A stretch of DNA of 64,000 bases. Origin: an uncultured Chloroflexia bacterium (GTDB lineage: Bacteria > Chloroflexota > Anaerolineae > B4-G1 > SLSP01). Where the stretch lies: assembly GCA_963751345.1 (NCBI GenBank), contig CAVVUS010000043.1, forward strand, positions 64,001 to 128,000, given 5' to 3'. Below are positions 44,935 to 64,000 of the stretch, one piece after another. The number at the start of each line of letters is the position of its first letter. The stretch's first letter is position 1. The notes beneath the pieces were generated by a model. The model saw only the letters and a program-made list of their open reading frames with translations, did no database searches and had not been told where the DNA came from. A program made the translations under genes and the position numbers.

Positions 44935-47161
44935 ATGCCACACAGTGTGACACGTCGCGACTTTCTCAAGATCGGTGCGCTCGGGTTGGCCTCTGCGGTC
45001 CTGACAGGATGTCAGAAGTCCCGTCGGTGGGTCAGCCTGGAACCCTACGTGCGTCCACCGGAAGAGCAATTGGCAGGCGTGGCGACGTGGTATGCGAGCA
45101 CGTGTCGGCAGTGTCCCGCCGGCTGTGGCATTATCGTGCGCACGATGAATGGACGCGCGCTGAAGATCGAGGGGAACCCTGAGCACCCTTTGAACGAGGG
45201 CCGGCTCTGTCCGCGGGGGCAAGCAGGGCTGCAGGTCCTCTATAATCCGGATCGGCTGTCCGGGCCGGTGCAGCAGGCCGAGCGCGGAGGACGGCAATTC
45301 AAGCCGATTTCGTGGGATGCGGCGCTCAACACGCTCTATTCGCAGGTCTCGCAGGCGGGCAGCAAGGTGGCGATTCTGGGCCGGACGACGATGTCAGGGC
45401 ATCTGTACGATCTCTTCCAGCGGTTTGCGACCGCCGTGGGCGCGCCCTCTCCGGTACTCTTCGACCTCTACGGCGTGTTGAGTGGTCGGCGGCTGTCGGA
45501 GGATACGGACCAATCTCTCTTTGGGACGGCATCTATGCCGGTCTACGATCTGGCCCGCGCGGAGATGATCCTGTCGTTCGGTGCGGATCTCTTCGGTGCG
45601 GGTCTTTCTGCCGTCTACTACGGGAAGGGATACGGGGCTTTCCGCAGTCGAGCCGCTGGGCGAGCGAGGCTATCTCGTACAGCTTGAGCCGCGACTGTCG
45701 ACGACGGGCGCGGTGGCCGATCTCTGGCATCCGATCCGACCTGCCTCCGAGGGGTTGGTGGCGCAGGCGCTGGTGCAGATCATTGCGGATCAGGCGCTTG
45801 GTCCTGCCGATTGGGTGGCGAGGGCACGCGCCTGGGCTGCGGGCGTTGATGTGGGCAGCGTGGCAGATGCGAGCGGCCTGTCTTCCGCTGCACTGGAGGC
45901 GCTTGCCCGCCGGTTTGTTAGTGTGTCGCAGCCGCTCGCGATCCCTGGCCCGGGGCTGTCGGGGCAGGATAGCGCAGTAGCTGCGGCAGAGGCTGTACAG
46001 GTTCTGAATATCGTGAGTGGCGTCGCTGGGAGTAATAGCGGCGGGGAACTCCTTGCCCTTTCGAACGATTCCCCGGTCTCCAGCCTGGTGAAGTCCCCCG
46101 AAGCCTCCTACGTGGAGATGCAGGCGCTCACAGATCGAATGCGCAGTGGCGATGTCCAGATGCTGTTGATCCACGAGGCCAATCCCGTTCAAAGTCTGCA
46201 GGGAATGGTCGGGTTTGTGGAAGCACTCGGCCACGTGCCCTACGTGGTCTCATTCAGCCCGATGGTGGATGAGACGAGCGTCTGGGCCGATATGATCCTT
46301 CCTGACCACACCTATCTGGAATCGTGGGGATACGAGGTGGTGTCGCCGGACGGCGGGTCGCCGATCGTCGGGAGCCAGCAGCCTGTGGTTACGCCGCTGT
46401 ACGACACGCGGGCGACGGGTGACGTGCTCTTGACGGTCGCACAGGGAATTGCGGCGGCCAAGAGCGCGCTCTCGTGGAACGACGAGGTGACCTTCCTGCA
46501 GGAGATGGTCGGCGCGCTGCCGAGAGGGTGCCGCGGGTGGCCAGGATAAGGATGTGCGTTGGGCCCGCTTCCTACAGCATGGCGGGTGGTGGCCGGCTAC
46601 ACAGAGTGGCGCGTCGGCCTCTATCTCCCGGGGCGCCGAAGGCGATCAGTGTGTCGCTGCCATCGTTCCAGGGAGATGCTCAGGAGTTCCCTTACTATCT
46701 GCATCTCTATATGTCCAGCCTGCTCAGCGATGGACGCGGTGCCAGCCAAACCTGGCTGCAGGGGGTCCCCGATCCGATGACGACGATCGCGTGGCAGACG
46801 TGGGTGGAGCTCAATCCGAGCACGGCTGCGGACCTGGGGGTGCAGGATGGGGATCTTGTCGTGGTACGTCCCCTACGGGGAGATTGAGATACCTGTGTAT
46901 GTCTATCCGGCGATTCGTCCCGGACACGGTCGTCGATCCCCGTGGGACAGGGGCACGCGGACTATGGAAGGTATGCGCGGGGTCGGGGGGCCGACGCGAT
47001 GCGGCTGGTCGGATCCTCTCCCGGGGGGGAGAGGAAACCTGAGATGGGCCACGCTTCGCGTGAAGATCGAGCCGACGGGCAAAAATGTGAAGGTGGCGAT
47101 GTTTGAAAACAAGATCGGGGTGACCGAAGGGTTTGTCAACGAGTCGTTCCCTGGAGAGTGA
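44935..47161 (+). CDS. molybdopterin-oxidoreductase-like subunit ActB1/QrcB (Tat lipoprotein; several frameshifts)
   Basis: 'VTRRDFLK' Tat plus 'LTGC' lipobox; 'STCRQCPAGCG...KIEGNPEHP...LCPRGQ'; 'DETS..AD.ILPDHTYLESWG'; 'WLQGVPDPMT..W'. Confidence 0.85.
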
Positions 47162-47162
47162 G

Positions 47163-47872
47163 ATGGCGTTTCCCAACCGCAAATGGACGATGGTGATCGA
47201 TCTCGACAAGTGCACGGGGTGCGGTGCGTGTGTGGTGGCCTGCCACGCCGAGAACAACGTACCTATCGTGTCCGAGAGGGAGGTCAATCGGGGCCGCGCG
47301 ATGCATTGGATTCACATCGAGCGGTATTGGGAGGGGGAGTACCCCGATATCAGGGCGCGGTTTCTGCCGGTATTGTGTCAACAGTGTGGGAGAGCGCCCT
47401 GTGAGCCGGTCTGCCCGGTCTACGCTACGCAGCATAGCGAGCGGGAAAACATGAACCTGCAGGTCTACAATCGGTGCGTGGGGACCCGCTATTGTCAGAA
47501 CAACGATCCGTACAAGGTGAGGTTCTTCAACTTCTTCGATCCGGTCTTCGATGCGCCATTGGAGCAACAACTCAACCCTGACGTGACGGTGCGGAGCGCC
47601 GGAGTGATGGAGAAGTGCACGTTCTGTGTGCAGCGTATCCGCCGGGCAGAGGAGCGGGCGCTCGTGGAGGATCGCAGTTTGAGGGATGGGGAGGCTGTGC
47701 CCGCTTGCGTACAGACGTGCCCGCCTGGCGCCCTGGTCTTTGGGGATCTCGATCGTCACCAGAAACAGCGCGGTCTCGATATTTCGCTTGATCATAACTC
47801 TATGAATTCAAGCTTCTAATCACCTGGGGTACACAGCCGTCGGTGGTGTACCTGAAGGGAGGGGACTCCTAA
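47163..47872 (+). CDS. four-cluster Fe-S subunit ActB2/QrcC (3' end corrupted)
   Basis: 'CTGCGACVVACHAENN', 'CQQC..APCEPVCP', 'YNRCVGTRYC', 'GVMEKCTFC', 'CVQTCP'; ends 'LGTQPSVVYLKG'. Confidence 0.88.
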
Positions 47873-49518
47873 TGGCAGAGTCTGACGTGCCTCGGAAGGA
47901 GTCCGGCGCCTGGGACGGCGTCTCTGCGCCGTGGGCGACGGGGTCTAGTTTTTTCCGCCCTTCCTCTGCGCAGGAGGCGGTGGCGCTAGACAGAGCCGCA
48001 CCTCACGATGGATATAAGAGGAAGAGAGAGTCTTCGCCACGTGCATCTGCTTGCGGACCGTGTGCGGACGATGATCCTGATACGGGACTTGCTGGAAGCT
48101 CGATGTAACGGACCGGGCTCCGTCGTCCCGGGGACCCGGTGGTGATCCTCGGGGGCCGGGTGCTCACATGGGGATTTGTTGGTGTTTATCATATGTGGCG
48201 GGGTATTGTAGTATTACTGCCTGACGCTCGGTCGGTGACGCGGGCGCTGTGAAGATCGCGTCTTTTGCGTACTTCATCGGTATTGGCTCATCCAGGGACG
48301 TTCATCTCCTCGTGAGCTTTCCGGGCGCTGAATTGAAGCGGCGACGTTCGATTCAGCCGGGCTGCGGAGAGAATGCTGACGGTCTTTGTGCTGCGATTAC
48401 AGCGGCGATGTTCCCCCGGTTCACCTCGGGCGCATGTGGAAGCGACTGGCTGTTCCCTCACCCGAACGTGCGACAGCTTTGGGCTGGGTTCCACTCTCCT
48501 CCTGATGTGGGACTTGTCAACAGCGCATCATGACTGATCGCCTTGAGCTGGATCATGGCTTTTCGTTTGGACCTGGCTGTCGCCCGATTCCGCCACAAAT
48601 GCCCGCGGGATAAGCTGCTGCGCTACCAGATTAAAGGACAGCCGACAGATCGATGACAAAGCCAAGCGTGGGACCCTCGGCTGGTTGAGCAGTTCTGGCG
48701 ACACACGTTGCAACGGCTGCTTGCGTCGGGGGCGGGCGCGACGGCGCAATGGTCTACACAGGGAACGGTGCTGTACACCTTCAGCTACGCTCGCATCCGC
48801 CTCAATGTTCTCGGTCAACACCATCGTCTCGCTGTGGGACTTTGCAACTGCCTCAGAGACCGGGAGCGGATACATAACGGTCTTTGGCCTCGATTCCGTG
48901 GTCGGGGCGCTTTTCTCCGGCGCGGGTGCCGTGATCATCGTTCTAGCGATCTTGCGGAAGATGATGCACCTGGAGTACTATCTGCGGCCGGAGCACTTCA
49001 ATGGCATGGGCATATTCCTGCTGTTGCTTTCCTTGACTTGGGCCTATTTCTACTTCAATGATTACCTGGCCCCGTGGTATGGGCAGGGCCCGGTTGAAAA
49101 AGTGATACAGACCTTGCTGTCCAGTGGTTGGGCGGCACCGTTGTGGTTCTTGATGATCTTCTCCAACGTCGTGTTGCCGTGGGCGACACTCTGGTCGAAG
49201 AAGATTCGGCGCTCGATCGGCGCATTGTTTTTCGTTTCGGTGTTTGTCCAGGTTGGGATGTACCTGGAGCGCTACATCATCATCCCGGTGTCGCTAGGGC
49301 GTAACGAACTGCCCTTTAGCTGGGGCAAATACACCCCGTTCTTGCCTGAGATCCTGATCACACTGGGAGCGTTCTCACTGGTAGGTTTTCTCTACGTATT
49401 GTTTTCCAGAATCATCCCTATCATTCCCATTTGGGAAGTCCGGGAGGGGCAGTTGCTACACGGCTGGCGCCAGATTGGTGGTGAGCTGATACAGACGAGC
49501 GCCGAACCGGAGGATTAG
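47872..49518 (+). CDS. actC: NrfD/PsrC-family quinol-binding membrane subunit ActC (5' half heavily corrupted)
   Basis: Remnants 'IASFAYFIGIG', 'FPHPN.RQLW..FHSP'; intact 3' half 'IVS.WDFA', 'GALFSG', 'AYFYFND', 'GMYLER', 'P.IPIWEV'. Confidence 0.75.
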
Positions 49519-49519
49519 G

Positions 49520-50586
49520 ATGTCTCAAAGGGCTCTATTTGCGCTGTTTCGCGATGTCTCGACCGTCGCAGGCGTGGTGGGACGGTTGCATGACCTGGGC
49601 ATTTCCGATGATGACATCGTCATAATGTCCAACATTCCCTACACACCCAAGATGCTGGGGCTATCATCCAAGCCCGGGAAAATAGGGGGTTTCGCGCTGA
49701 TCGGCGCTGTCTTGGGGGTGGCAACGGCGATCTTCCTGACTGCGGGGATTTTCCTGCTGTATCCCCTCATCCAGGGCGGGCAGCCGCTGATCCCGATTCC
49801 GCCATCGATCATCGTGACCTTTGAGGTGACAATGCTGGGCACGATGTGGGCCACCTTTCTAGGGCTACTGGTTATCAATCGGTTCCCGGTCTTCGGTCGT
49901 CCTGCTTACGATGTGCGAGTCTCGGAAGGGGAAATCGGGGTTGTGGTTCAAGGAGAGTTCCATTCCGAGCGTGCTTCCGAGGTGGATCAGTCGAGAAAGT
50001 AGCGAATGTTTGCGGCCCACGGGGCTAACGAGTTTCGCGACCTGACGGACTACAGCGGCGTGAGCAGCGGCAGTTGGCGCAGGCTCATGGCCTTCTTGAC
50101 GGTGGTGCTGATCGGCGGGGGGGGATTTCCCTGTTGTTCTTCTACGACGTGCGTGAGGATCCCATTCCCGACACAGATGGCGGATCAGGACTCCATCGCG
50201 TTACGTGCGAGGGCCCAGACTTGCGGCGCCGGCGGATGCGGTGCCCATCCAGGGGCCTGTACTTATTTCGGGGGCGCCCGCCAGTGAGCCTATCTCGCCG
50301 ACCGTGGCGTCGTTTCAGCGCGGGCAGGTGCTGTTCAACGTGAACTGCGCTCTCTGTCATGGAGAGACGGGGGTCGGTGACGGGCCGCTCAGCCAGTACT
50401 TCGCGCCTCGCCCTGCCGACCTGACGGGCAGCGTGGTGCGGAGCGTGCCTGACTCGACGATCTTCCTGGTGATCACGCAAGGCTTCGGGAGCATGCCAAG
50501 CCTGGCCGAGAACTTGCTGCCCGTCGAACGCTGGGACGTCGTTGAACTACGTGAGGAGCCTGGAAACGAATGGGGGACAACCATGA
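49520..50586 (+). CDS. ActD (DUF3341) apparently fused to monoheme cytochrome c ActE (frameshifts)
   Basis: 'YPL..GGQP...PP.IIVTFE.TML' (ActD); then TM, 'QMADQDS', 'RG..LFNVNCALCHG', 'MP', 'ERWDVVNYVR'; stop overlaps next ATG. Confidence 0.72.
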
Positions 50587-51493
50587 CAATACGAGCCCGG
50601 ACGGAAAGCCCGAATGTGGGCGCTAGTCCTGGCGCTTGTCCTGCTGCTGGGGGCGTGTGGCAGCCCCAATCCACAGCTTGCGGGCCGACACCGATCCCGA
50701 CGTTGGCCCCGGCGGAGCAGGTGACGCTTGTGCCGGCGCTGCAGACTTTCGCGGGAGCATCCGGCCCCAATGCAGCCGCGGGCGCAGGCTCTCTTTGAGA
50801 TGCATTGCACGCTCTGTCACGGGGCGGAAGGGCAGGGCATCATTGGCCCTGCGCTCAGGAATAGCGCCATACATACAGCCGCGCTCAGAGCCAATCGATC
50901 TACTCCACGATCGCTTGAGGCGGTCCGGCGAGAAGGGATGCCTGCCTGGTTCGTAGCGAACGGTGGGCCCCTGACCCTGATACGGAGATTACGAGCATTA
51001 TCGATTATCTCAGCACATTGCAGGGGGTATCGGCCGTGCCTACGTCGACCCCCATGCCTGTAGAACCCACGCCCACGCCGCTTCCAACCGGGGCCCCGAC
51101 GCCTCAGCCCGCTCAGCCGTCTGAACCTGGAGCGGCCAGGGCCGGCGGCTTCGATGACCGGCGACATTGGCAGGGGGATGGTGCAGTTTGGCCGGAATTG
51201 TGCGGCTTGTCATGGTCCGGAGGGCGTCCTGGGGATCCCGAATCCGGGTTCCGACGATGGTAGTGTGCCGGTGTCTGAATCCGATTGATCCCACCTTGGT
51301 TAGCTCCAATCCCGGTATCTTCGCGGTCAACGTCGACCTGTTTATCGAGCATGGATCGGTGCCGGAGGGAGCCTCACCGAGAATGATGGTCATGCCGTCT
51401 TTCGGTGATGGAGGGATGCTCACTCATCAGACGATTGCCGATCTGATCGCCTATGTGATGCACCTGAATGGTGTTCAGGAGACGTCACAGTGA
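50583..51493 (+). CDS. diheme cytochrome c lipoprotein with Pro/Thr linker (frameshifts)
   Basis: 'LVLLLGAC' lipobox; CTLCH...'GMPAW'; CAACH...'VMPSF...IADLIAYV'. Confidence 0.75.
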
Positions 51494-52037
51494 AGAAGCG
51501 ACGAATCCGACGAGCCACGATCGTCGGGCTGACGCTCGTGGCCGCACAGGCCTGGCTGGGTGCACCCAGATCACCGTCCCCGTTCTGCTTCCCGAGACGT
51601 CGCCCACCTGGCCCCTGGTGCTCTATTTCGGACTTGTGTTGTTCGTGGTGGGTGGGATGTTGGGGCTCTCTTACGTCCTCGGGGAGCGGCATAGGGGCCG
51701 GGCGATGGAGCAGCCCTATGAGGCGGGGATGCTTCCCACGGGACCGGCACGCCTGCGTTTTGATGTAAGGTTCTATCTGATCGCGATCTTCTTCGTTATC
51801 TTCGATCTTGAGGTGGCGTTCCTCTTCGCCTGGGCCGTGGCTGCCCGTGAACTGGGATGGTCCGGCTACGTAGAGGTCGTTATCTTTACCATGATTCTCG
51901 TGGTAGGGCTGGTCTATCTGTGGCGAACGGGGTCGCTCGAGATGGGTGCATTTCGACAGCATAGCTCGGTGGCGGCATCCACGCATCGGACAGCGCACAA
52001 AGTGGGGAAAAGAAGTGACAATGAAGAAGCGAAGTAA
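51490..52037 (+). CDS. nuoA: NADH-quinone oxidoreductase subunit A (N-terminal extension; probable frameshift near 51546)
   Basis: 'PYEAG', 'FYLIAIFFVIFDLEVAFLFAWA'; GTG at 51490 overlaps upstream stop, with AGGAG RBS. Confidence 0.92.
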
Positions 52038-52049
52038 GCAAGGCCCGAG

Positions 52050-52700
52050 ATGCAACGCCCTCAGATGGACAACCCCGCGTGGGGGGAGCGATTTCCGCCC
52101 GGTGCGTTAGGTAAGGCTGTTGAGCGCTTTGCTGAACAGCAGGTGATCTTGACCAAGGTGTCGTCGATTCTGGCCTGGGGACGTAAGAATTCGCTATGGC
52201 CCTTTGGCTTTGGCCTTTCCTGTTGTTTTGTGGAGATGGCGACGAGCCTCACCAGTCGCTATGACATCGCGCGCTTCGGGTCGGAGATCATCCGGGGCTC
52301 ACCTCGAGAAGCGGACATGATGATCATCGCTGGGACGGTGTTTATGAAGATGGCCCCCTTTATCCAGCGGCTCTACGACCAGATGATGGAGCCGAAATGG
52401 GTCATCTCGATGGGCTCCTGCGCGAACTCGGGCGGCATGTTTGACATCTACAGTGTCGTCCAGGGGGTGGACAAGTTCTTGCCGGTGGACGTCTACGTAC
52501 CGGGGTGCCCACCCAGCCCGATGGCGCTGATGGAGGGGATCAACCTGCTTCAGGATGCGGTCGGACAGGAGCTCCGCCCTTTGAGTTGGGTCGTCGGGCC
52601 CCAGGGCGTGACCCGGAAAGAGCCGCTGCCGGACGTGCGGGCGTGGAAGCGGAAAGAGCGGCAGGCAGCGACCGAGTTGCGTTCGCCGGATGAGGTGTAG
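52050..52700 (+). CDS. nuoB: NADH-quinone oxidoreductase subunit B
   Basis: '[10 protein letters not shown]', '[10 protein letters not shown]', 'PGCPP'. Confidence 0.97.
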
Positions 52701-52703
52701 TAG

Positions 52704-54514
52704 GTGAGCGAGGATCGAGGGCCGACCGGAATCGGCCAAACGCCTATGAATGAACATGCTGACGTCGGCCCTCAGACGGGCATTTTGCACGAGCTGCAGG
52801 AGCGATTTGGTGAGGACGTCATCACGCCCCAGGCCGTGTCCGATGATACGCCCACCGCGTGGGTACCACCGGAGCACATTCACGAGGTCGTGGCCTATCT
52901 GAAGACGGGGGCGACGCGTCCCTACCAAACGCTCTTCGATCTCTTTGGGGTCGACGAGCGTGAGCACGCGCATCGTGCGGGCCAGCCGGAGAGTGACTTC
53001 ACCGTCATCTACCGGCTCCTGTCCTTCGATCGCAATGCGGATATCTGTCTCAAAGTCCCGCTTCAGGGCGAGTATCCGCGCCTGGGCACGGTTACGGATG
53101 TCTGGCCATCGGCGAACTGGTATGAACGTGAGGCATGGGATATGTTCGGCATCACGTTCGAGGGACATCCTCATCTGACTCGCATCCTTATGCCTCCCAC
53201 GTGGGAAGGTCATCCCCTGCGCAAGGAGCACCCGGCTCGCGCCACCGAGATGGGACCTTACGAGTTGACGGAGGAGAAACAGATCCGCGAGGAGCAGGCG
53301 GCACAGTTCCGTCCGGAGGAATGGGGGCTTGCAGGAAAGCGCGGAGGATACAGATGTCATGTTCCTTAATCTGGGCCCTCAACACATGGGGACTCACGGC
53401 GTCCTGCGCCTCATCTTGAAGTTGGATGGCGAGGAGATCGTCGATGTGGTCCCGGACATCGGCTATCACCATCGTGGCGCCGAGAAGATGGCTGAGCGTC
53501 AGACCTGGCACACGTACATTCCATATACGGATCGGGTGAACTACCTGGGTGGCGTGCTGAACAACCTGGCCTACCTGCTGCCCGTCGAGCGTCTCGCGGG
53601 GATCGAAGTTCCGGACCGTGTGAAGGTCATCCGCGTGATGATGAGCGAGTTCTTCCGGATCTCCAGTCACCTGGTCTGGTATGGCACCTTCGCCCAGGAC
53701 GTTGGGATGATGTCGCCGGTCTTCTACACGTTCGCCGACCGCGAACGCGTCTTCGATATCGTGGAGGCGATCTGCGGTGCCCGGATGCATCCGAGCTGGT
53801 TTCGCATTGGCGGAGTAGCCCAGGACCTACCCCACGGATGGGAGAAGCTCGTGCGCGGCTTCCTGGCCTATTTTCCCAAGCGGTTGAGGGAGTTCGACAA
53901 GATCATCATGGGCAACCGCATCCTGAAAGGGCGCACCCAGGGCATCGGAGCTTACGACACGGCCAAGGCGATGGAGTGGGGGGTCACCGGGCCGGGGTTG
54001 CGAGCGACCGGATACGAATGGGACTTCCGCAAGCAACGCCCCTACTCGGGTTACGATCAGTTCGAATTCGATATCCCCACCGGCCAACACGGGGACTCCT
54101 ACGATCGAGCGCTCGTACGCATAGAAGAGATGCGCCAGAGCCTGCGCATCATCCAGCAGTGTGTCGACAATATGCCGGCGGGTCCTTACAAGGCCCTGCA
54201 TCCGCTGACAACCCCTCCGCTCAAAGAGCGAACGATGCACGATATCGAGACCCTGATCACGCACTTTCTGGGCGTGTCGTGGGGGCCCGTGATCCCGGCT
54301 GGGGAGTCCACAGCGCTCGTCGAAGGGCGCGCAGGGCGTCAACAGCTACTACCTGATAAGCGACGAGGATATCCACGCATATCGGGCGCGCATCCGCACG
54401 CCGACATTTGCTCACATCCAGATGTTGCCCGAGATCAGTCGAGGGCTGATGGTGCCCGACATTATCGCCGTGTTGGGCAGTATCGATTTCGTTCTGTCCG
54501 ATGTAGACCGCTGA
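52704..54514 (+). CDS. nuoCD: fused NADH-quinone oxidoreductase subunit C/D (frameshifts near 53325 and 54330)
   Basis: '[14 protein letters not shown]', 'GHPLRK'; junction 'FRPEEWG..MFLNLGP.H..HG' as in E. coli NuoCD; ends '[11 protein letters not shown]'. Confidence 0.93.
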
Positions 54515-54529
54515 CCCGGAGAGCCAGTT

Positions 54530-54994
54530 ATGTTGAGTGACAAGGAACGCCGCGAGATCGAAGCCGAAGCGGATCAATACCTGGAGAAGCGTGGGGCGTG
54601 CGTGAAGGCCCTCCAGATCGTGCAGCAGGCGCACGGTTGGGTCTCGGATGAGCACCTACGGGAGGTAGCACAGCTTCTTGGTATGACCCCTGACGAGCTC
54701 GAAGGCGTCGCTACGTTCTACAGCCTTATTTATCGCGAGCCGGTGGGACATCACGTGATCCTGATCTGCGATAGTGTGACGTGTTGGATCATGGGCTATG
54801 ACGCACTGCTGGAAGGCCTCAAGTCCCGGCTGGGCATCGATCTGGGTGGGACGTCCGCCGACCATCGCTTCACGCTACTTCCCGTGGCGTGTTTGGGGGC
54901 GTGTGATCACGCGCCGGCCATGATGATTGATGAAGAGTTGTACACGGATGTCACGGTGGAGAAACTGGACCAAATCCTGGCTCAGTACGAGTGA
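54530..54994 (+). CDS. nuoE: NADH-quinone oxidoreductase subunit E
   Basis: 'VATFYS', 'CDSVTC', 'CLGAC..AP'. Confidence 0.96.
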
Positions 54995-55005
54995 CCGGAT
55001 GAGAC

Positions 55006-56300
55006 ATGAGTGAGCGACCGCTAACCGAACACATCAAGCCTGGAGCCGGGCCGCTGAGCCTCACGGACTACGAAAACGTGGGGGGATATCAGGCGCTGCG
55101 CAAGGCGCTCGGCGAGATGACGCCTGCCGACGTTCATGGGGGAGGTCAAGCAGTCCAACTTACGCGGGAGAGGCGGGGCTGGCTTCCCGACCGGTCTTAA
55201 GTGGAGCTTTGTGCCTGCTGATGACGGGACGACGCCCAAGTATCTCGTCGTCAACGCGGACGAGATGGAACCGGGTACCTTCAAGGATCGGCTGCTCCTG
55301 GAGGGCAATCCTCATCAGTTGGTGGAGGGGGCCATCCTTGCGGCGTATGCCATTGGGGCCGGAGAGGCCTACGTGCTATTGCGCTGGGCCTATCGAAAGG
55401 CGGCGCAGGCCATCGAGCAGGCCATCGCGGAGGCCCTTGATAGAGGCTATTTGGGCCGCGGGATCCTGGGATCGGACTACAACCTGAATATGCGCCTACA
55501 CGTCAGCGCCGGGCGCTACATGTGCGGCGAGGAGACCGGTTTGTTGAATGCGCTGGAGGGACGGCGTGCCGTCCCCCGCTCAAAGCCCCCCTACCCGCAG
55601 GTATCCGGCCTGTGGGGCAAGGACACCATCGTCAACAACGTGGAGACGCTCAGCAACATACCGCACATCGTGTCGAAGGGTGGCGCGTGGTTCAAGAGCC
55701 TGAGCCTCGGTGAGGATAGCGGAACAAAGTTGTACGGGGTCAGCGGCAAGGTGCGGCGCCCCGGTCTCTGGGAACTGCCGATGGGCACGCCGATGCGCGA
55801 GATCTTGGAGGAGCATGCGGGGGGTATGGCGTCTAGCCTGGCGATTCATGGGAGTGCTTCCTGGAGGTGCGTCGACGGACTTCGTGACGAGGAGCACCTC
55901 GACGTCAAGCATGGATTTTGATCCGTGGCCCAAGGTCGGAAGCCGTCTCGGAACGGGGACGATGATCGTCCTCGATGACCAAACCTGTCCGGTAGGGATG
56001 GTGCTCAACCTGGAGCGGTTCTTTGCCCGGGAGTCGTGCGGTTGGTGTACGCCATGCAGGGACGGGCTGCCATGGGTGGTCAAGATGCTCGACGCGATCG
56101 AGCGAGGCAAGGGGCGGATGGACGATCTGGATCGGCTGGAAGCCCACACCAGGTTGTTGGGGCCGGGGCGGACTTTCTGCGCGTTGGCGCCCGGTGCTAT
56201 GGAGCCCTTGCAGAGCGCACTCAAGTACTTCCGAGAGGATTTTGAGCGACACATCCGTGAGCATCAGTGCCCCTGGCAAGCCAAGGGGGAGGCGACGTAG
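55006..56300 (+). CDS. nuoF: NADH-quinone oxidoreductase subunit F, copy 1 (canonical CGEET; frameshifts)
   Basis: 'GRGGAGFPTG', 'NADEMEPG', 'YMCGEETGL', 'KPPYP', N3 'CGWCTPC...TFC'. Confidence 0.93.
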
Positions 56301-57575
56301 TGGAGCGCCCGCTTACCGAGCACATCAAGCCCGATCGCGAGCCCCTCAGCCTGCAAGAGTATGAGCAGGTGGGGGGGTACGGTGCGCTGCGGCAAGCCCT
56401 GAAGGCTATGACTCCTTCGGACGTGACACAGGTCGTAAGCGACTCCGGGTTGCGGGGGCGGGGAGGGGCTGGATTCCCGACGGGACGTAAGTGGGAGTTC
56501 ATCCCAATTGGCGATGATGCGCCCCGTCCCAAATACATGATCGTCAATGCCGACGAGATGGAACCCGGAACGTTCAAGGATCGCCTACTTCTGGAGGGCA
56601 ATCCGCATCAGTTACTCGAGGGGACGATCCTCGCTGCGTATGCGATTCGCGCCGATGTGGCGTATATCTTCTTGCGGTGGGCTTACCATCGAGCCGCACA
56701 GGGGCTGAAGCGCGCCATTGATGAGGCGTACCATGCCGGCTACCTGGGTACGAACATCCTCGGCTCCGGGTTCGATCTGCGGTTGGTGCTCCACATCAGC
56801 GCCGGGCGTTACATCTGTGGCGAAGCCACAGCGCTGCTCAATGCCCTGGAGGGGGAGCGCGGGATCCCCCGCTCCAAGCCGCCCCACGCAGCGACCGCCG
56901 GCCTATGGACGAAGCCCACCGTAGTAAACAACGTCGAGACTCTGTGCAACGTGCCTCACATCGTCAATAAGGGCGCAGATTGGTTCAAGGGGTTGGCATT
57001 GGGTGAGGATAGCGGAACCAAGCTCTTTCAGGTGAGCGGCAGGGTCAAGCACCCCGGTGTCTGGGAACTCCCGATGGGCACGACCCTCCGCGAGATTATG
57101 GAGGAATACGCCGGTGGGATGCAGGAAGGGGTAGCTCTGCGCGGGCTCCTACCCGGCGGTGCCTCTACCGAGTTCCTGTTGCCCGAACAACAGGATGTAT
57201 CGATGGAGTTTCGCCGCGGTTGAGCAGGCCGGGAGCCGGTTTGGCACGGCTACGATCATCGTGCTCGATGACCATACCTGCCCTGTTGGCATGATCCGCA
57301 GTCTCATGCGCTTTTTCGCTCGCGAATCCTGTGGTTGGTGTACGCCCTGCCGGGATGGTTTGCCCTGGGTCCTCAAAGATCTTGACGCGATCGAGTCCGG
57401 TCAGGGGCGAACCGAGCACATCGATACGCTTGCGAGGCAGACGCGAGTGATCACGGACAAGAATACCTTCTGCGAGCTGGCGACCGGGGCGATGGAGCCG
57501 TTACGAAGCGCACTCGAGTTTTACGAAGCTGACTTCCGACAGCATGTCCGCGAAAAGCACTGTCCTTGGAGATGA
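56300..57575 (+). CDS. nuoF: NADH-quinone oxidoreductase subunit F, copy 2 (CGEAT variant; frameshift near 57212)
   Basis: 'GRGGAGFPTG', 'NADEMEPG', 'YICGEATAL', 'KPPHA', N3 'CGWCTPC...TFC'; GTG overlaps the stop of copy 1. Confidence 0.92.
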
Positions 57576-57578
57576 TGC

Positions 57579-60308
57579 ATGGCGACGATTTATATAGACG
57601 GTGATCCCTATGAGGTCGAGGAAGGCTGGAATCTTCTCCACACCTGCCTTTCGCTGGGCTTCGACATACCCTATTTCTGTTGGCATCCGGCGATGGGATC
57701 CGTCGGAGCGTGCCGGCAGTGCGCGGTCCGTCTGTTCAAAGATGAGAAGGATACGAAGGGCACGATCGTGATGTCGTGCATGACGCCGATTCGTGACGGT
57801 ATGCGCATCTCCATTGACGACCCCGAAGTCAAGGAGTTCCGGGCCAGCGTGATCGAGTGGTTGATGGTTAACCATCCCCATGACTGTCCTGTCTGCGATG
57901 AAGGGGGCGAGTGCCATCTGCAGGATATGACTGTCTTGACGGGGCATGCCTATCGTGAGTTCGATTTCCGGAAGCGTACCCACCGGAACCAGTACCTTGG
58001 TCCGTTCGTCACGCACGAGATGAACCGCTGCATCGCCTGTTACCGCTGCCTCCGGTTCTACCGCGAGCACGCCGGCGGGCGTGATTTCGATGTCTTTGGT
58101 GCGCATGACAGGGTCTACTTCGGGCGCTTTGAGGAAGGGGTTCTGGAGAGCGAGTTCAGCGGGAACTTGGTCGAGATTTGCCCCACGGGAGTCTTTACTG
58201 ACAAGAGCCTGCACCGGCATTACACCCGGAAGTGGGATCTTCAGACTGCGCCATCCATCTGTGTTCACTGTGGGTTGGGATGCAATACCATTCCCGGGGA
58301 GCGTTACGGAGAGCTCCGTCGGATCCGCAACCGCTATCACCACGACGTCAACGGTTACTTCCTGTGCGACCGCGGGCGCTACGGCTATGAGTTTGTCAAC
58401 AGTGACCAGCGTATCCGCACAGCGTTGCTTCGCGACGAAGAAGGCGAAACTGGCCTCGGTGCCAAAGACCGAAGCGGTGACACGCGCAGCTAGCATGCTG
58501 GGCTCCGACAAGCACGTCATCGGCATCGGCTCACCGCGGGCTTCGTTGGAGGCCAACTTCGCGCTGCGCGACCTGGTCGGGCCGAGCAACTTTTACCAGG
58601 GCGTCACCGACAACAACAACCTTCTCGTCGCGGCTGCCATCGAGATCATGCAGAAGGGACCTTCCAAGATCCCGTCACTGCACAGCGTCGAGCACAACGA
58701 TGCGGTGCTGATCCTGGGCGAGGATGCGACCAGCGTTGCGCCGATGTTGGCCCTGGCTCTGCGACAGTCGGTTCGCCAGATCCCTCTGCGGATCGAAGAG
58801 CAGCTCCTCCATATTCCCAGTTGGCAGGATGCGGCGGTGGAGGAGGCGATCCAGAGCCAAGAGGGCCCTCTTATCATCGCTACCCCGGGAAGCACACGGC
58901 TGGACGACGTGGCGACGCGCATCATACACCTTCCGCCCGAGGATCTGGCCCGCTTCGGTTTTGCCGTCGCCCACGCTATCGACGAGAATGCCCCGGCCGT
59001 AGAAGGCCTGTCGGAAGAGGTTGCGGCCCTGGCGACGGAGACCGCCGAGCAATTGACCAAGGGCCAGAGACCGTTGGTGATATCCGGCATCAATGTGGGC
59101 ACCGATGCAGTGATGCATGCTGCAGCCAACGTGGCGTCGGCGCTCCATAAGGTGGTAGGCACGTCTGAACTGCTCTTCACCGTTCCGGAATGCAACAGCA
59201 TGGGGTTGGGCCTTATGGGGGGCAAGTGGACTTGCTGCGGCGCGGGAGGCGGTGGAAAGCGGGGACGTTGATACCATCGTCATCCTCGAGAACGATCTCT
59301 ACCGCCGCGCCGGCGCTGCCGAGATCGACACGCTCCTGGACGCGGTTCCTCACGTGATCGCCATCGATCACCTGATGAACCGGACGACGGAGAGGGCCGA
59401 ACTCGTGCTGCCTGCAGCCACCTTCGCCGAAACAGACGGCACGCTGGTCAATAACGAGGGGCGCGCTCAACGCTATCTATCAGGTCTTCGTCCCGGAGGG
59501 TGACGTTCAAGTCGAGTTGGCGGTGGATCAACGAGATCAGGACCGCCGCGCGTCACGCCGACGTGGCGAAAGTGGCAGATCGTGGACGACGTCATCGCCG
59601 ACATGGCGGAGGCGTATGCCGGTCTTTGCTGAGGTGCCGGACATCGCCCCCCCGGCAGGGTTCCGGCTGTTGGGCCAGCGAATCCCTCGCGAGTCTCACC
59701 GCTACTCTGGTCGCACTGCCATAAACGCGGATGTTGCCGTCAGTGAGCCGAAGCCACCTCAAGATCCGGATACGCCGTTCTCTTTCACGATGGAGGGGTA
59801 TCCAGGGCAGCCGCCGGCTGCGTTGATCCCACGCTATTGGGCGCCCCATTGGAACTCGGTGCAGGCGTTGAACAAGTTCCAGGAGGAGGTCAATGGCCCC
59901 CTGCGTGGGGGTGATCCGGGGCGCTTGCTGATCGCCCCCAAAGAGGACGCCCAGGTGTCCTACTTTGACCAGATCCCCAACGCATGCGAGCTGCGGTCCG
60001 ATCAATGGCGTGTGATTCCCCAATATCACATCTTTGGCTCCGAACCCTTGAGCATGCTGTCGCCGGGGGTGGCCGAACTTGCCCCGGAGCCCTACGTCGC
60101 GGTGAGTGCAGCCGATGCGGAGAAGCTGGGCGTGGAGTCCGGTGATGACGTGACGGTCATGATTGGCGATCAGCCGTTGGTCGTCTGCGCGCGTATCGAT
60201 GGGTCGATCCAGGATGGCATCGCGAGGTTACCGATGGGTCTGAAGAACGTTCCCACGGTAAAGCTACCGATGTGGACCGAGATACGGAAGGAGACCGAGA
60301 ATGAGTGA
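57579..60308 (+). CDS. nuoG: NADH-quinone oxidoreductase subunit G, E. coli-type with N7 motif (frameshifts)
   Basis: 'PYFCWH...GACRQC', '[15 protein letters not shown]', 'RCIACYRC', N7 'CVHCGLGC...LCDRG', 'HRYSGRTA', 'WNS.QA.NKFQ'. Confidence 0.93.
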
Positions 60309-61257
60309 AGTCGTGCGGCACCTGATTCTCGTCTTCGGCGTGCTGTTCGGCGCGCTGACCATCGCCGCCGGACTCATCTGGTTGGAACGCAGATTGCTTG
60401 CGGCCTGGCAAGATCGGTACGGTCCCAACCGCGTCGGTCCATTTGGCCTGATCCAGGTGTTGGCCGATATGGTCAAGATCTTCACCAAGGAAGATTGGGT
60501 ACCGCCCTTTGCGGACAGGCCGGTGTTCATATTGGCACCTGCTATCATCATTGTCACGGTCCTGATGTCATTCGCCGTGATCCCGCTGGGGCCGGGAGCC
60601 AGCGTGGCAAATCTCAACATCGGGCTGCTCTTTTTCCTGGGGATGTCCTCCATGGGCGTCTATGCCGTGACGCTCGCCGGGTGGTCGTCGAACAGTAAGT
60701 ACTCCCTGATCGGCGGCCTGCGGGCGGCAGCGCAGATGCTCAGTTACGAGGTGTTTATGGGCCTCTCTTTGATGGGCGTCGTGCTGATTGCCGGCTCGTT
60801 CAACCTCTCGGATATCGTTGAGGCTCAACGCAAGGTGTGGTTCTGCATACCCCAGTTTCTGGGGTTCGCGGTCTTCTTCATCGCCGGCGTGGCGGAGACG
60901 CGACGGATTCCTTTCGACATTCCGGAGGCGGACAACGAGCTGAACGCGGGATATCACACCGAGTACTCGGGGATGAAGTTTGGTATGTTCTACGTGGGAG
61001 AGTATATGGGCATCACATTGATCTCCGCGATGATCGTCACGCTGTTCTTCGGTGGCTGGCTGGGACCGTTTTTCCCGCCCTTGGTGTGGTTTCTGCTGAA
61101 AACCTTCGTCTTTGTCTGCAGTTTCATCCTGCTTCGGGCTGCGATGCCCCGCCCGCGTTACGACCAGTTGATGGCCCTCGGGTGGAAGCTGTTGCTTCCT
61201 CTGTCTTTGCTCAACGTGATGGTTACCGGCGGCGTCGTGTTGGCGCTGGGGATGTGA
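60301..61257 (+). CDS. nuoH: NADH-quinone oxidoreductase subunit H
   Basis: 'ERR...QDRYGPNRVG', 'SYEV', 'R.PFD.PEA', 'PRPRYDQ'. Confidence 0.97.
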   Translation: MSEVVRHLILVFGVLFGALTIAAGLIWLERRLLAAWQDRYGPNRVGPFGLIQVLADMVKIFTKEDWVPPFADRPVFILAPAIIIVTVLMSFAVIPLGPGASVANLNIGLLFFLGMSSMGVYAVTLAGWSSNSKYSLIGGLRAAAQMLSYEVFMGLSLMGVVLIAGSFNLSDIVEAQRKVWFCIPQFLGFAVFFIAGVAETRRIPFDIPEADNELNAGYHTEYSGMKFGMFYVGEYMGITLISAMIVTLFFGGWLGPFFPPLVWFLLKTFVFVCSFILLRAAMPRPRYDQLMALGWKLLLPLSLLNVMVTGGVVLALGM

Positions 61258-61266
61258 GGTCGACCT

Positions 61267-61800
61267 ATGCTTGTACCCTTAAGGGCACTTGGTCTATTGA
61301 GAGGTGTCTGGCGCGTCTTTCTACATCTGTTCCATCCGCCGGAGACCGTACAGTACCCTGACGAGATGCCGTATCGGCCGCCGAGATTCCGGGGACGCAT
61401 CATTCTCTCCCGTGACCCCGACGGTCAAGAGCGCTGCGTGGCCTGCTATCTATGTTCGGTCGCCTGTCCCGTGGATTGCATAGCACTGCAAGCCACGGAA
61501 GATGAACACGGACGTCGGTATCCTGCGTTCTTCCGTATCAACTTCTCCCGCTGTATCTTCTGTGGGTTCTGTGAGGAGGCCTGTCCGACCTACGCGATTC
61601 AGCTCACGCCCGACTTTGAGATGGGCGAATATGACCGGCAGCATCTGGTGTACGAGAAAGAGGATCTCCTCATCAGCGGCACCGGCAAGTATCCCGGCTA
61701 CAATTTCTACCGGGTCGCTGGACTCGCGATTGGCGGCAAGGACAAGGGCGAGGCCGAGAGCGAGTCGCCACCTGTTGACGTGCGAGAGCTGATGCCGTAA
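61267..61800 (+). CDS. nuoI: NADH-quinone oxidoreductase subunit I
   Basis: 'CVACYLC...CP', '[12 protein letters not shown]'. Confidence 0.96.
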
Positions 61801-61852
61801 GGGCGTTAGCACGTTGACACCTGGGGCATACCAGGGCAGGCGTCAGTACGTC

Positions 61853-61891
61853 TCAACGTTCAAACGTTTGAACGTGCCAACGTTCCAACGC
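61853..61891. repeat. short degenerate AACGTT-containing repeats between nuoI and nuoJ
   Basis: ctcaacgttcaaacgtttgaacgtgccaacgttccaacg, ~8-9 bp period with internal palindrome ACGTTCAAACGTTTGAACGT. Confidence 0.55.
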
Positions 61892-61905
61892 AGAAAGGAG
61901 CCTGA

Positions 61906-62445
61906 ATGAACGTAGCGTTCTATGTCGCGGCAGGGATCGCCATCCTGTCGACGGTCCTGACGATCACGCGGGACAACGCAGTTCACGCGTTGCTTTACCT
62001 GATCGTCTCGTTGCTCGCCGTGGCCGTGATCTTCTTCACTCTCGGTGCCCCGTTTGTCGCGGCATTGGAGGTGATCATTTATGCCGGCGCCATCATGGTG
62101 CTGTTCCTCTTTGCTGTCATGATGCTGAACCTTGGCTCCCAGTCTGTGGTCCAGGAGAGACGGTGGCTTGCGGCGGTGACGTGGTTTGGAGCAGCATTTC
62201 TCGCAACTGTTTTGCTCGCCGAGCTTGCCTTACTGATGATTGGCACCCAAGGTCACGCCATTATGACCCAGAGCGTGACCCCAAAGGACGTCGGGCTGGC
62301 GCTCTATGGACCCTATCTGTTAGGTGTGGAATTGGCATCAACACTGCTGTTAGCGGGGCTCATCGGGGCCAACATAATTGGACGGCGCCAGCGGACTGGT
62401 GAGCGACGTCCCGCCTCCACCGAGAGCGATCGTGTGCAGTTGTAG
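61906..62445 (+). CDS. nuoJ: NADH-quinone oxidoreductase subunit J
   Basis: 'NAVHALLYLIVS', 'IIYAGAIMVLF', 'VELAS'. Confidence 0.96.
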   Translation: MNVAFYVAAGIAILSTVLTITRDNAVHALLYLIVSLLAVAVIFFTLGAPFVAALEVIIYAGAIMVLFLFAVMMLNLGSQSVVQERRWLAAVTWFGAAFLATVLLAELALLMIGTQGHAIMTQSVTPKDVGLALYGPYLLGVELASTLLLAGLIGANIIGRRQRTGERRPASTESDRVQL

Positions 62446-62462
62446 AGACGTGCCGGCTGGCA

Positions 62463-62528
62463 CGTCTTCCGAGACGCTTCGTCTTCCGAGACGCTTCGTC
62501 TTCCGAGACGCTTCGTCTTCCGAGACGC
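62463..62528. repeat. tandem 17-bp repeat (about 4 copies), each forming a CGTCT-TCCG-AGACG hairpin
   Basis: GTCTTCCGAGACGCTTC at 62464, 62481 and 62498, partial copy at 62515. Confidence 0.9.
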
Positions 62529-62558
62529 AGGGCAGCAATATCTGAAGGATGGTGAGGG

Positions 62559-62867
62559 ATGACGTCGATTCCAATGGAGTATGGACTGATATTGGCAGCG
62601 GTGCTCTTTGTTCTAGGCCTAACTGGCGTGCTTGTGCGTCGGAGCGTCTTCTTTCAGTTGATGTCTATCGAGGTGATGCTCAATGCCGCAGGACTGGCAT
62701 TCGTCGTTGCGGGTGCTCATTGGGGGGCGGCGGATGGGCAGGTAATGTTCATCTTTATTCTCAGTATGGCTGCGGCTGAGGTCGCTGTTGGATTGGCCCT
62801 GGCTCGCCAGCTCTTCCACCATCTCAAGACATTGGATAGTGACGCTGCAAGCCACATGCGAGGGTGA
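62559..62867 (+). CDS. nuoK: NADH-quinone oxidoreductase subunit K
   Basis: 'SIEVMLNA', 'GQV', 'AAAEVAVGL'. Confidence 0.96.
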
Positions 62868-62872
62868 CGGAT

Positions 62873-64000
62873 ATGTTCAGTCTACTTTGGTTAGTGCCGG
62901 CGCTGCCGATCGCGGGTTTCCTTGGGCTTACGCTGCTTGGACAGTACTTCCCACGTAGAGTCACTGCCCTGGTGGGCGTAGGATCGGTGGCTCTATCGGC
63001 GATTGTAGCATGTCTGATCACCGTTGCCTTTGTGTTCGCGCCGCCACCGGACCACACCTACGTGGAGGCATTCTGGACGTGGATCCAGGTCGGCGGATTT
63101 GCCCCTAACGTGGCTTTCCATCTCGATCCCTTGTCGCTGGTGATGATGCTGGTCATCACCTTTGTCGGCTCGCTTATCCATCTGTATTCCTCGGAGTTCA
63201 TGATCGAAGAAGAGGGATACGCGCGTTTCTTTGCTATCATGAATCTCTTCGTCGGCGCTATGCTCATTCTGGTGCTGGCCGACAACTTGCTGCTCCTCTA
63301 CCTGGGGTGGGAAGGTGTTGGGCTGTGCAGCTATCTCCTGATTGGCTTTTGGTACAAGGATCCGGCAAACGGCAGGGCCGCCCGCAAGGCGTTTATCGTC
63401 ACACGCATCGGCGATACGGCGATGATTATCGGCATCTTCCTGCTCTTTGACAACCTGGGCACCTTGCAGATCCAGTTGCTGATGCAGCGCGCAACACAGC
63501 AATGGGCCGTGGGATCGGGGTTGGCCATCGCGGCGGCGTTACTCCTACTCGGAGGGGCGGTAGGCAAATCGGCTCAACTACCGCTGCAAATCTGGTTGCC
63601 CGACGCGATGGCCGGCCCGACACCGGTGAGTGCCCTGATCCACGCGGCGACGATGGTGACGGCGGGCGTGTACCTGATTGCGCGCACCCATACCTTGTTC
63701 GCCCTTGCCCCTGCCGTACAATTGGCGGTCGCCATCATTGGGGCGCTGACCCTGCTATTGGCGGGCTTCAGCGCCCTCAACCAGCGCGACATCAAGCGGG
63801 TGTTGGCTTACTCGACGATGAGCCAGATCGGGTACATGTTTCTGGCTCTGGGCGTCGGTGCGTGGTCCGCTGCGATCTTCCACTTTATGACCCATGCGTT
63901 CTTCAAGGCGCTGCTCTTCCTGTCTGCAGGAGTGATAGTGCTACGGTTGCATCACGAGCACGATATCTTCAAGATGGGAGGGCTGCGTAAGCAGCTTCCC
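62873..64000 (+). CDS. nuoL: NADH-quinone oxidoreductase subunit L (3'-truncated by window edge)
   Basis: Read directly from ATG 62873: 'LDPLS', 'GWEGVGLCSYLLIGFW', 'GKSAQLPLQIWLPDAMAGPTPVSALIHAATMV', 'THAFFKALLF'. Confidence 0.95.
   Translation, partial: MFSLLWLVPALPIAGFLGLTLLGQYFPRRVTALVGVGSVALSAIVACLITVAFVFAPPPDHTYVEAFWTWIQVGGFAPNVAFHLDPLSLVMMLVITFVGSLIHLYSSEFMIEEEGYARFFAIMNLFVGAMLILVLADNLLLLYLGWEGVGLCSYLLIGFWYKDPANGRAARKAFIVTRIGDTAMIIGIFLLFDNLGTLQIQLLMQRATQQWAVGSGLAIAAALLLLGGAVGKSAQLPLQIWLPDAMAGPTPVSALIHAATMVTAGVYLIARTHTLFALAPAVQLAVAIIGALTLLLAGFSALNQRDIKRVLAYSTMSQIGYMFLALGVGAWSAAIFHFMTHAFFKALLFLSAGVIVLRLHHEHDIFKMGGLRKQLP

Follow-up and report, generated by a model that had tools for sequence, protein, structure and literature searches.

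Two tandem nuoF genes in a complex I operon of Anaerolineae, one encoding a putative NADPH-type flavoprotein

Complex I is regarded as strictly linked to reduced nicotinamide adenine dinucleotide (NADH). Analysis of a 64,000-nucleotide stretch of DNA (hereafter the window) from an uncultured Chloroflexia bacterium of the Anaerolineae lineage (GenBank assembly GCA_963751345.1, contig CAVVUS010000043.1, positions 64,001 to 128,000 of the forward strand) revealed a complex I (nuo) operon in which two different nuoF genes stand in tandem between a single nuoE and a single nuoG. The first copy (F1) is of the canonical NADH type, and the second (F2) belongs to a conserved subfamily, under purifying selection, in which residues of the adenosine pocket are replaced. 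The pattern of these replacements inclines us to the view that F2 is an alternative flavoprotein preferring NADPH, the phosphorylated form of NADH, for a complex I of the clade-E type. A broader proposal is advanced more tentatively, at a little under an even chance: that a natural NADPH:quinone oxidoreductase that pumps protons operates in some Anaerolineae, in the form of a complex I isoform with F2 in the place of F1, and that it may work in reverse to supply NADPH to organisms in which no PntAB was found. Below, G000 denotes the genome of the window and G002 a same-genus genome (93% and 96% complete, respectively); the features at the centre of the argument are the following.

54530 to 54994, + strand: nuoE, single copy, thioredoxin-like 2Fe-2S subunit (PF01257, E = 1.5e-49).
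55006 to 56300, + strand: nuoF copy 1 (F1), canonical NADH type, with CGEET and KPPYP; four indels in the assembly.
55532 to 55534, + strand: GAG (Glu) of F1, in YMCGEET, equivalent to E. coli NuoF E183 (sequence reading).
56288 to 56292, + strand: GGAGG, Shine-Dalgarno-like and of presumed function, within the 3' end of F1 and 7 nucleotides upstream of the F2 GTG (sequence reading).
56300 to 57575, + strand: nuoF copy 2 (F2), variant type, with CGEAT and KPPHA; one indel in the assembly.
56486 to 56488, + strand: CGT (Arg) of F2, in FPTGRKW, at the F2-specific position 63 (sequence reading, subfamily comparison).
56825 to 56827, + strand: GCC (Ala) of F2, in YICGEAT, at the E. coli E183 position (sequence reading, HMMER alignment).
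56885 to 56890, + strand: CAC GCA (His 56885-56887, Ala 56888-56890) of F2, in KPPHA, at the E. coli F203-P204 positions (sequence reading, HMMER alignment).
57579 to 60308, + strand: nuoG, single copy, with several frameshifts in the window (Pfam; 908 amino acids in G002).

The operon occupies positions 51468-64000 of the window on the + strand, and Pfam recognises nuoA, B, C, D, E, G, H, I, J and K; the order nuoE, F1, F2, nuoG was read from the sequence. A single base, 56300, is common to the TAG stop of F1 (56298-56300) and the GTG start of F2 (56300-56302), so that the two genes are probably translationally coupled and hence co-expressed. This overlap had been reported in the initial annotation of the window and is confirmed in the sequence, and the pocket codons and motifs given there (GAG within YMCGEET...KPPYP, GCC within YICGEAT...KPPHA) are exactly those present.

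The same annotation described both nuoF copies as full-length genes between single nuoE and nuoG genes. The tandem pair and its position stand, but neither copy is one open frame in this assembly, five frameshifts having been overlooked. According to the open reading frame listing and a three-frame translation, the reading of F1 passes through three frames and that of F2 through two, and alignment to G002 places single-base indels at ~55133, ~55842, ~55887 and ~55910 in F1 and at ~57208 in F2. The nuoD and nuoG genes and an ActB-like gene upstream are likewise broken in the window. Public metagenome contigs from four runs belonging to three studies were compared with positions 53300-59300 (9-14% of sampled words per run); they differ from the window by 0-3 bases per 151-272 nucleotides, and most have a depth below 5, each being weak evidence by itself. 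Contigs of these runs do not have the window's indels at 55136, 55888, 55907, 57208/57209, 54323/54328 and 53323, places that coincide with those inferred independently from G002. The F2 indel at 57208/57209 is missing from contigs of two runs from two studies, and three of the four F1 indels are missing from run contigs; the site near 55842 falls outside all listed contigs. Since these near-identical contigs are free of the indels and both nuoF genes are open in G002, the breaks look like assembly indel errors. The Ala codon of F2 itself lies within two run contigs identical to the window (X1, 56798-57043; X4, 56789-56939), and contigs of independent runs thus confirm GCC as the true codon and show no chimera.

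Among solved structures the best match of F2 is E. coli NuoF (7awt_F), to which it aligns end to end (residues 3-418, E = 4.8e-149). Counting by hand on the printed HMMER alignment places the Ala of F2 on E183 and its His-Ala on F203-P204. E183 of E. coli NuoF contacts the adenosine ribose by hydrogen bonds to its hydroxyls. The Glu and Phe of the NADH adenosine pocket (E183 and F203) are represented by Glu and Tyr in F1 and by Ala and His in F2, and KPPYP and KPPHA each lie 13 residues downstream of the CGEET or CGEAT motif.

The remainder of F2 is that of an ordinary NuoF. Its domain architecture (PF01512, PF10531, PF10589 and PF22461, that is Complex1_51K, SLBB and NADH_4Fe-4S) is found in the F2 protein of G002 (P0001) and in all listed F2-type matches. 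In agreement with the retention of the flavin mononucleotide (FMN) motif and of the N3 cysteines asserted from the sequence at the outset, residues G53, R54, G55, G56, A57 and F59 of the FMN loop (GRGGAGF) and the four ligands of cluster N3 (C344, C347, C350 and C391) do not vary across 20 F2-type sequences, and the loop is present in the F2 of the window. The adenine of the nucleotide bound to complex I is stacked by three Phe residues, according to the passages available from PMC4893023. The two of these positions other than F203 are kept in F2: Phe59 is invariant, and Phe67 was read in the G002 and window sequences.

The F2 variant defines a subfamily. Among the 120 best-matching 90%-clusters for P0001, its own among them, 20 read CGEAT, and 19 of these 20 have KPPHA at the expected distance. 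When cluster members were added and 58 F2-type sequences were compared with 171 canonical ones, ten F2-specific positions emerged, four of which lie in nucleotide-pocket motifs: A176, H196, A197 and R63. Position 176 is Ala in all F2-type sequences (58/58) and Glu in 100% of the canonical ones; His, found at position 196 in 98% of the F2-type, stands where canonical sequences have Phe or Tyr; at position 197, Ala accounts for 100% of the F2-type and Pro for 100% of the canonical sequences; and position 63 is Arg in 95% of the F2-type, where canonical relatives have Q, L, V or T. A further F2-specific residue, A198, adjoins these four positions.

Phylogenetic analysis recovered the F2 sequences as one clade, with 20 of 20 rows in a 211-row FastTree tree (Shimodaira-Hasegawa-like support 100) and 14 of 14 in a 59-row IQ-TREE tree (Shimodaira-Hasegawa approximate likelihood-ratio support 99). 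The F1-type sequences of 430-431 amino acids form a separate clade with support 99 in both trees, a 431-amino acid cluster (P0185) falling outside it. The free trees put the branch of F2 outside the whole canonical set, with support that is moderate (85-90). A single ancestral tandem duplication for F1 and F2 is possible, as the approximately unbiased (AU) test does not reject F1 and F2 as one clade (p = 0.52). A recent duplicate or a misassembled repeat is ruled out, F1 and F2 being 64-65% identical and both types being old clades. Between G000 and G002, the ratio of nonsynonymous to synonymous substitution rates (dN/dS) is 0.10 for F1, 0.065 for F2 and 0.06 for nuoE; both copies are under purifying selection. 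The second copies thus form a monophyletic group that conserves a small residue at the E183 position under low dN/dS. Over 12 inferred pairs, distances among F1 and among F2 proteins are correlated (r = 0.958, a value reached in none of 5000 Mantel permutations), and F2 is not the faster evolving of the two (mean distance 0.142 vs 0.158 for F1).

Two other NuoF-like lineages were noticed beside this subfamily. P0250 (438 amino acids) and P0342 (584 amino acids) carry CGEAT or CGEAS together with a remodelled KPPFP loop (LKGVHMA and DKESHMT), and P0250 has the length of a complex I subunit and 54% identity to F2. Loss of the pocket Glu may therefore have arisen more than once in NuoF-sized proteins.

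The order nuoE-nuoF-nuoF-nuoG recurs intact in G002, the RpoB of which is up to 87% identical to its nearest proteins, named "Anaerolineae bacterium". In G002 the genes nuoCD (a fused frame of 588 amino acids), nuoE, F1 (430 amino acids, P0002), F2 (424 amino acids, P0001) and nuoG (908 amino acids) are intact, and F1 and F2 show the identical one-base stop/start overlap. Elsewhere, the longest-contig sizes recorded for F1-clade and F2-clade proteins are identical in 11 cases (3278, 5691, 6744, 9946, 12953, 15241, 40101, 48822, 64364, 65352 and 120919 bp), against 0 of 9 for a neighbouring canonical cluster taken as control, which suggests that F1 and F2 are paired in 11 metagenome contigs. 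A 430-amino acid and a 424-amino acid gene on one contig of 3278 bp imply adjacency. Adjacency beyond G000 and G002 is drawn from these size matches, because two scans of contigs gave canonical single-copy loci: among 80 loci on genome contigs none had two motifs (79 with a single CGEE[TS], and L101 without a match to the regular expression), and each of 80 loci on metagenome contigs searched with generic patterns had a single CGEET nuoF.

The replacements seen in F2 belong to a pattern that extends over the NuoF family. We surveyed the best 150 NuoF representatives at 50% identity, 125 of which carry a CG[E/D]xx motif. Where the E183 position is Glu, the residue at +20 is aromatic in 108 of 114 representatives (108 of the 125 motif carriers); where it is not Glu, the residue at +20 is Arg or His in 9 of 11, and the other two have His one position earlier. 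This coupling of Glu with an aromatic residue, and of non-Glu with a basic one, is a new observation. F2 has both a non-acidic residue at the E183 position (Ala) and a basic one 20 residues downstream, at the F203 position (His196).

Enzymes of known specificity fall on the two sides of this pattern. The electron-bifurcating HydABC of Acetobacterium woodii uses NAD+ and that of Thermoanaerobacter kivui NADP+, and Phe205 and Arg340 stabilise the bound nucleotides, according to the excerpted text of PMC10021017. T. kivui HydB (8a6t_B) reads CGEST...RPPRT, and HydB of A. woodii (7q4v_B) and A. mobile (7t2r_B) reads CGEET...RPPFP; by hand count, T. kivui Arg340 is the equivalent of F203 and Ser320 that of E183. 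In its sequence, F2 carries the same two-position switch as T. kivui HydB, with an additional basic residue at position 63. Mutagenesis bears on the same site: in Rhodobacter capsulatus FdsB, the substitutions E259R, G, H and Q brought a gain of NADP+ activity, and replacement of the Glu of E. coli complex I by Gln or His increased the affinity for NADPH (both as given in the portions available from PMC10671435, the latter citing Morina et al. 2011).

The model of NuoE with F2 scored 0.92 in ipSAE (interaction prediction score from aligned errors) against 0.00 for the best control, which shows a likeness to NuoE-NuoF complexes already solved and not binding as such; the mark applied is reached by 58 of 80 solved complexes and by 2 of 110 mismatched pairs, at least 97% of contacts are shared between runs, and the predicted local distance difference test (pLDDT) value of the partner is at least 92. 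One F2-specific residue, Q244 (KLFQVSG in the window), replaces a Gly present in 99% of canonical sequences and lies within the predicted interface segment 244-248, modelled against NuoE residues 83-88 and 125-126. Q244 could adjust the NuoE/N1a interface.

These findings can be brought together as follows. A nuoF gene would have been duplicated in tandem within a clade-E-type operon and both copies retained, F1 as the ordinary NADH-binding flavoprotein. F2 would have kept what FMN, cluster N3 and docking to NuoE require, and its adenosine pocket would have been rebuilt by exchange of the ribose-contacting Glu for Ala, of the adenine-stacking Phe and the following Pro for His-Ala, and by an Arg or His beside the pocket Lys. 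By taking the place of F1 at the single NuoE/NuoG docking site, F2 would give a second isoform of the N-module (the NADH-oxidising arm) accepting NADPH, or NADPH as well as NADH, and the same membrane machine could thereby connect the NADP(H) pool with quinone and the proton-motive force in either direction. The initial annotation had proposed such NADH- and NADPH-linked isoforms of complex I; its proposal came through all the computational tests available and is supported, as a prediction.

Several observations weigh against this interpretation. Position 63 of F2 is His, not Arg, in G002, and the analogy with T. kivui HydB is positional and not one of identity, F2 having Ala and His where HydB has Ser and Arg. 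Stoichiometry is a question too, since one nuoE has to suffice for two translationally coupled nuoF genes. The search for PntB (PF02233), which found none in either G000 or G002, speaks for the interpretation, but absence from metagenome-assembled genomes is weak evidence. The pair is rare among species representatives: G000 and G002 are its only carriers among 22 genomes of the genus and among 145 of the order. Class and phylum samples, evenly drawn and of 401 genomes each, gave any close match in 3 and 6 genomes, and the other matching genomes (2 and 5, respectively) had no second copy, their single copies being 61-67% identical. Finally, direct DNA evidence of adjacency comes from the two genomes only, the 11 metagenome cases being deduced from size matching.

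F2 might still be a subunit of an NADH dehydrogenase, its pocket changes retuning affinity, NAD+ release or the production of reactive oxygen species; it would then be a kinetic isoform in which NADPH plays no physiological part. In favour of this, all catalytic motifs are kept in F2, and single substitutions of the homologous Glu of FdsB lowered the affinity for NAD+ besides adding NADP+ activity (available passages of PMC10671435). Glu183 variants of E. coli NuoF reportedly also have altered production of reactive oxygen species. We nevertheless find it unlikely, given three to four coordinated and invariant changes at the adenosine site that include gains of His and Arg, and that fit both the family-wide pattern of non-Glu plus basic residue and an NADP+-dependent solved enzyme, T. 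kivui HydB.

It is less probable still that F1 and F2 work together in one assembly, such as a soluble or membrane-attached NuoE-F1/F2 transhydrogenase or confurcating unit, or that F2 forms a separate soluble diaphorase with NuoE. Translational coupling with probable co-expression, the strict co-inheritance of the two proteins, the failure to find PntB in either genome and the position of Gln244 in the predicted NuoE interface speak for such arrangements. Known complex I, on the other side, has one NuoF site, the operon has only one nuoE and one nuoG, homology predicts the same NuoE surface for F1 and F2, and the literature searches gave no precedent.

Binding of another ligand by F2, be it another dinucleotide or a protein redox partner, or a non-catalytic regulatory role, appears quite improbable. 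Without one adenine-stacking Phe, any adenine dinucleotide could be bound less tightly, and a ferredoxin-linked role has been proposed for the unrelated NuoF2 of Nitrospina (PMC3578206), but F2, unlike the latter, has retained the FMN loop and is free of additional Fe-S domains, and it keeps the other two adenine-stacking positions (Phe59 and Phe67). An origin of the second copy in assembly error, or its decay as a pseudogene, might be suspected from the frameshifted F2 of an indel-rich assembly, but can be set aside almost entirely in view of the F2 frameshift being missing from contigs of two independent runs, the intact gene in G002, the 58 full-length relatives and the dN/dS of 0.065.

Comparison with known systems helps to delimit what F2 as an NADPH-preferring flavoprotein would represent. 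E. coli NuoF has the same Pfam architecture and belongs to the same operon type, with fused NuoCD and long NuoG, whereas in F2 the positions of E183, F203 and P204 are occupied by Ala, His and Ala, the Leu preceding the pocket Lys is replaced by Arg or His, and a canonical copy coexists with F2 in one operon. In the engineered Glu183 variants of E. coli NuoF of Morina et al. (2011, J Biol Chem 286:34627) the same position is stripped of its acidic side chain; F2 differs in being natural and conserved and in having further pocket changes. T. kivui HydB resembles F2 in being a flavoprotein of the NuoF family and in having a non-acidic residue for E183 (Ser320) and a basic one for F203 (Arg340), but it is a hydrogenase subunit of 630 amino acids with extra Fe-S domains and not a complex I subunit. 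The NuoF2 of 'NUO-2' in Nitrospina gracilis and Kuenenia is also encoded by a second nuoF in a genome with canonical complex I, but it lacks the FMN site, carries additional Fe-S clusters, is encoded by a gene that does not adjoin nuoF1, and has been assigned a proposed link to ferredoxin (PMC3578206). Nitrospina nuoF2 and a separate nuoF of Nitrospira were considered as precedents and set aside as different things. PntAB would be a functional analogue in that it couples the NADP(H) pool to the proton-motive force, and belongs to a protein family unrelated to NuoF. Our literature searches found neither a native NADPH-type complex I nor a description of tandem nuoF genes, paper supplements (e.g. 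PMC4453560 Fig. S2 and those of PMC10021017) lying outside their coverage.

To our knowledge, NADPH-driven proton pumping has been obtained only by mutating E. coli NuoF. The abstract of the 2011 study by Morina and colleagues is said to call NADPH:ubiquinone oxidoreductase an activity absent from nature. If F2 does use NADPH, one membrane machine would link the NAD(H) and NADP(H) pools alike to quinone and the proton-motive force, which would open a new route between anabolic reducing power and respiration in a widespread and poorly cultured bacterial class. A natural and conserved paralogue in which the change of Glu is accompanied by compensating basic residues would be a test case for specificity in the unusual Rossmann fold of NuoF, as well as a natural template for the engineering of NADPH-coupled respiratory chains. 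In addition, the covariation of Glu with aromatic and of non-Glu with basic residues may predict the use of NAD or NADP in NuoF-like subunits of hydrogenases and formate dehydrogenases.

The rest of the operon is of the clade-E type, with fused nuoCD and long nuoG as judged from the G002 frames. Both traits are marks of the horizontally mobile "clade E" complex I in the sections available from Spero et al. (PMC4453560). Its remaining genes in the window are the following.

51468 to 54540, + strand: nuoA (51468-52037), nuoB (52050-52700) and nuoC-nuoD (52704-54540), recognised by Pfam, with frameshifts near 53323 and 54323-54328.
60301 to 64000, + strand: nuoH, nuoI, nuoJ, nuoK and the start of nuoL (Pfam; tblastn).

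Immediately upstream of the nuo operon lies an alternative complex III cluster (window 44935-50798) with molybdopterin/Fe4S4 ActB-like pieces, a 4Fe-4S protein, ActD (PF11821) and a c-type cytochrome; its ActB-like gene is split over several frames, as the nuo genes are. Only the window operon has a complex-I-type N-module in G000. Three other Nuo-like clusters of this genome are without nuoE, nuoF and nuoG (C10:197117-200015, C38:120307-127091 and C11:291468-298380), among them possibly one split complex of the 11-subunit type and one Mbh/Mrp-like cluster. A further cluster (C34:71704-77965; L003, L004) has nuoE-like, nuoF-like, nuoE-like, nuoF-like and nuoG-like genes in tandem, with HydB/HoxF-like proteins of 538-605 amino acids, and may encode a bifurcating hydrogenase- or Bfu-type enzyme. 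Homologues of its nuoF-like genes are present in most of the genomes of the genus that were searched, often as two nearby copies.

Single-base indels are abundant in the G000 assembly (nuoC/D, nuoF1, nuoF2, nuoG and a second nuoH at C38:120274-121187), with the consequence that gene calls are fragmented and frameshift-aware handling is needed. In G002, at least one indel, which may be an error or a real frameshift, divides nuoH between two frames that overlap (317 and 225 amino acids; L025 15171-16164). On the same G002 locus, upstream of nuoB (L025 6874-6990), an 18-nucleotide tandem repeat would read GQRPSD six times in the frame that leads on into nuoB.

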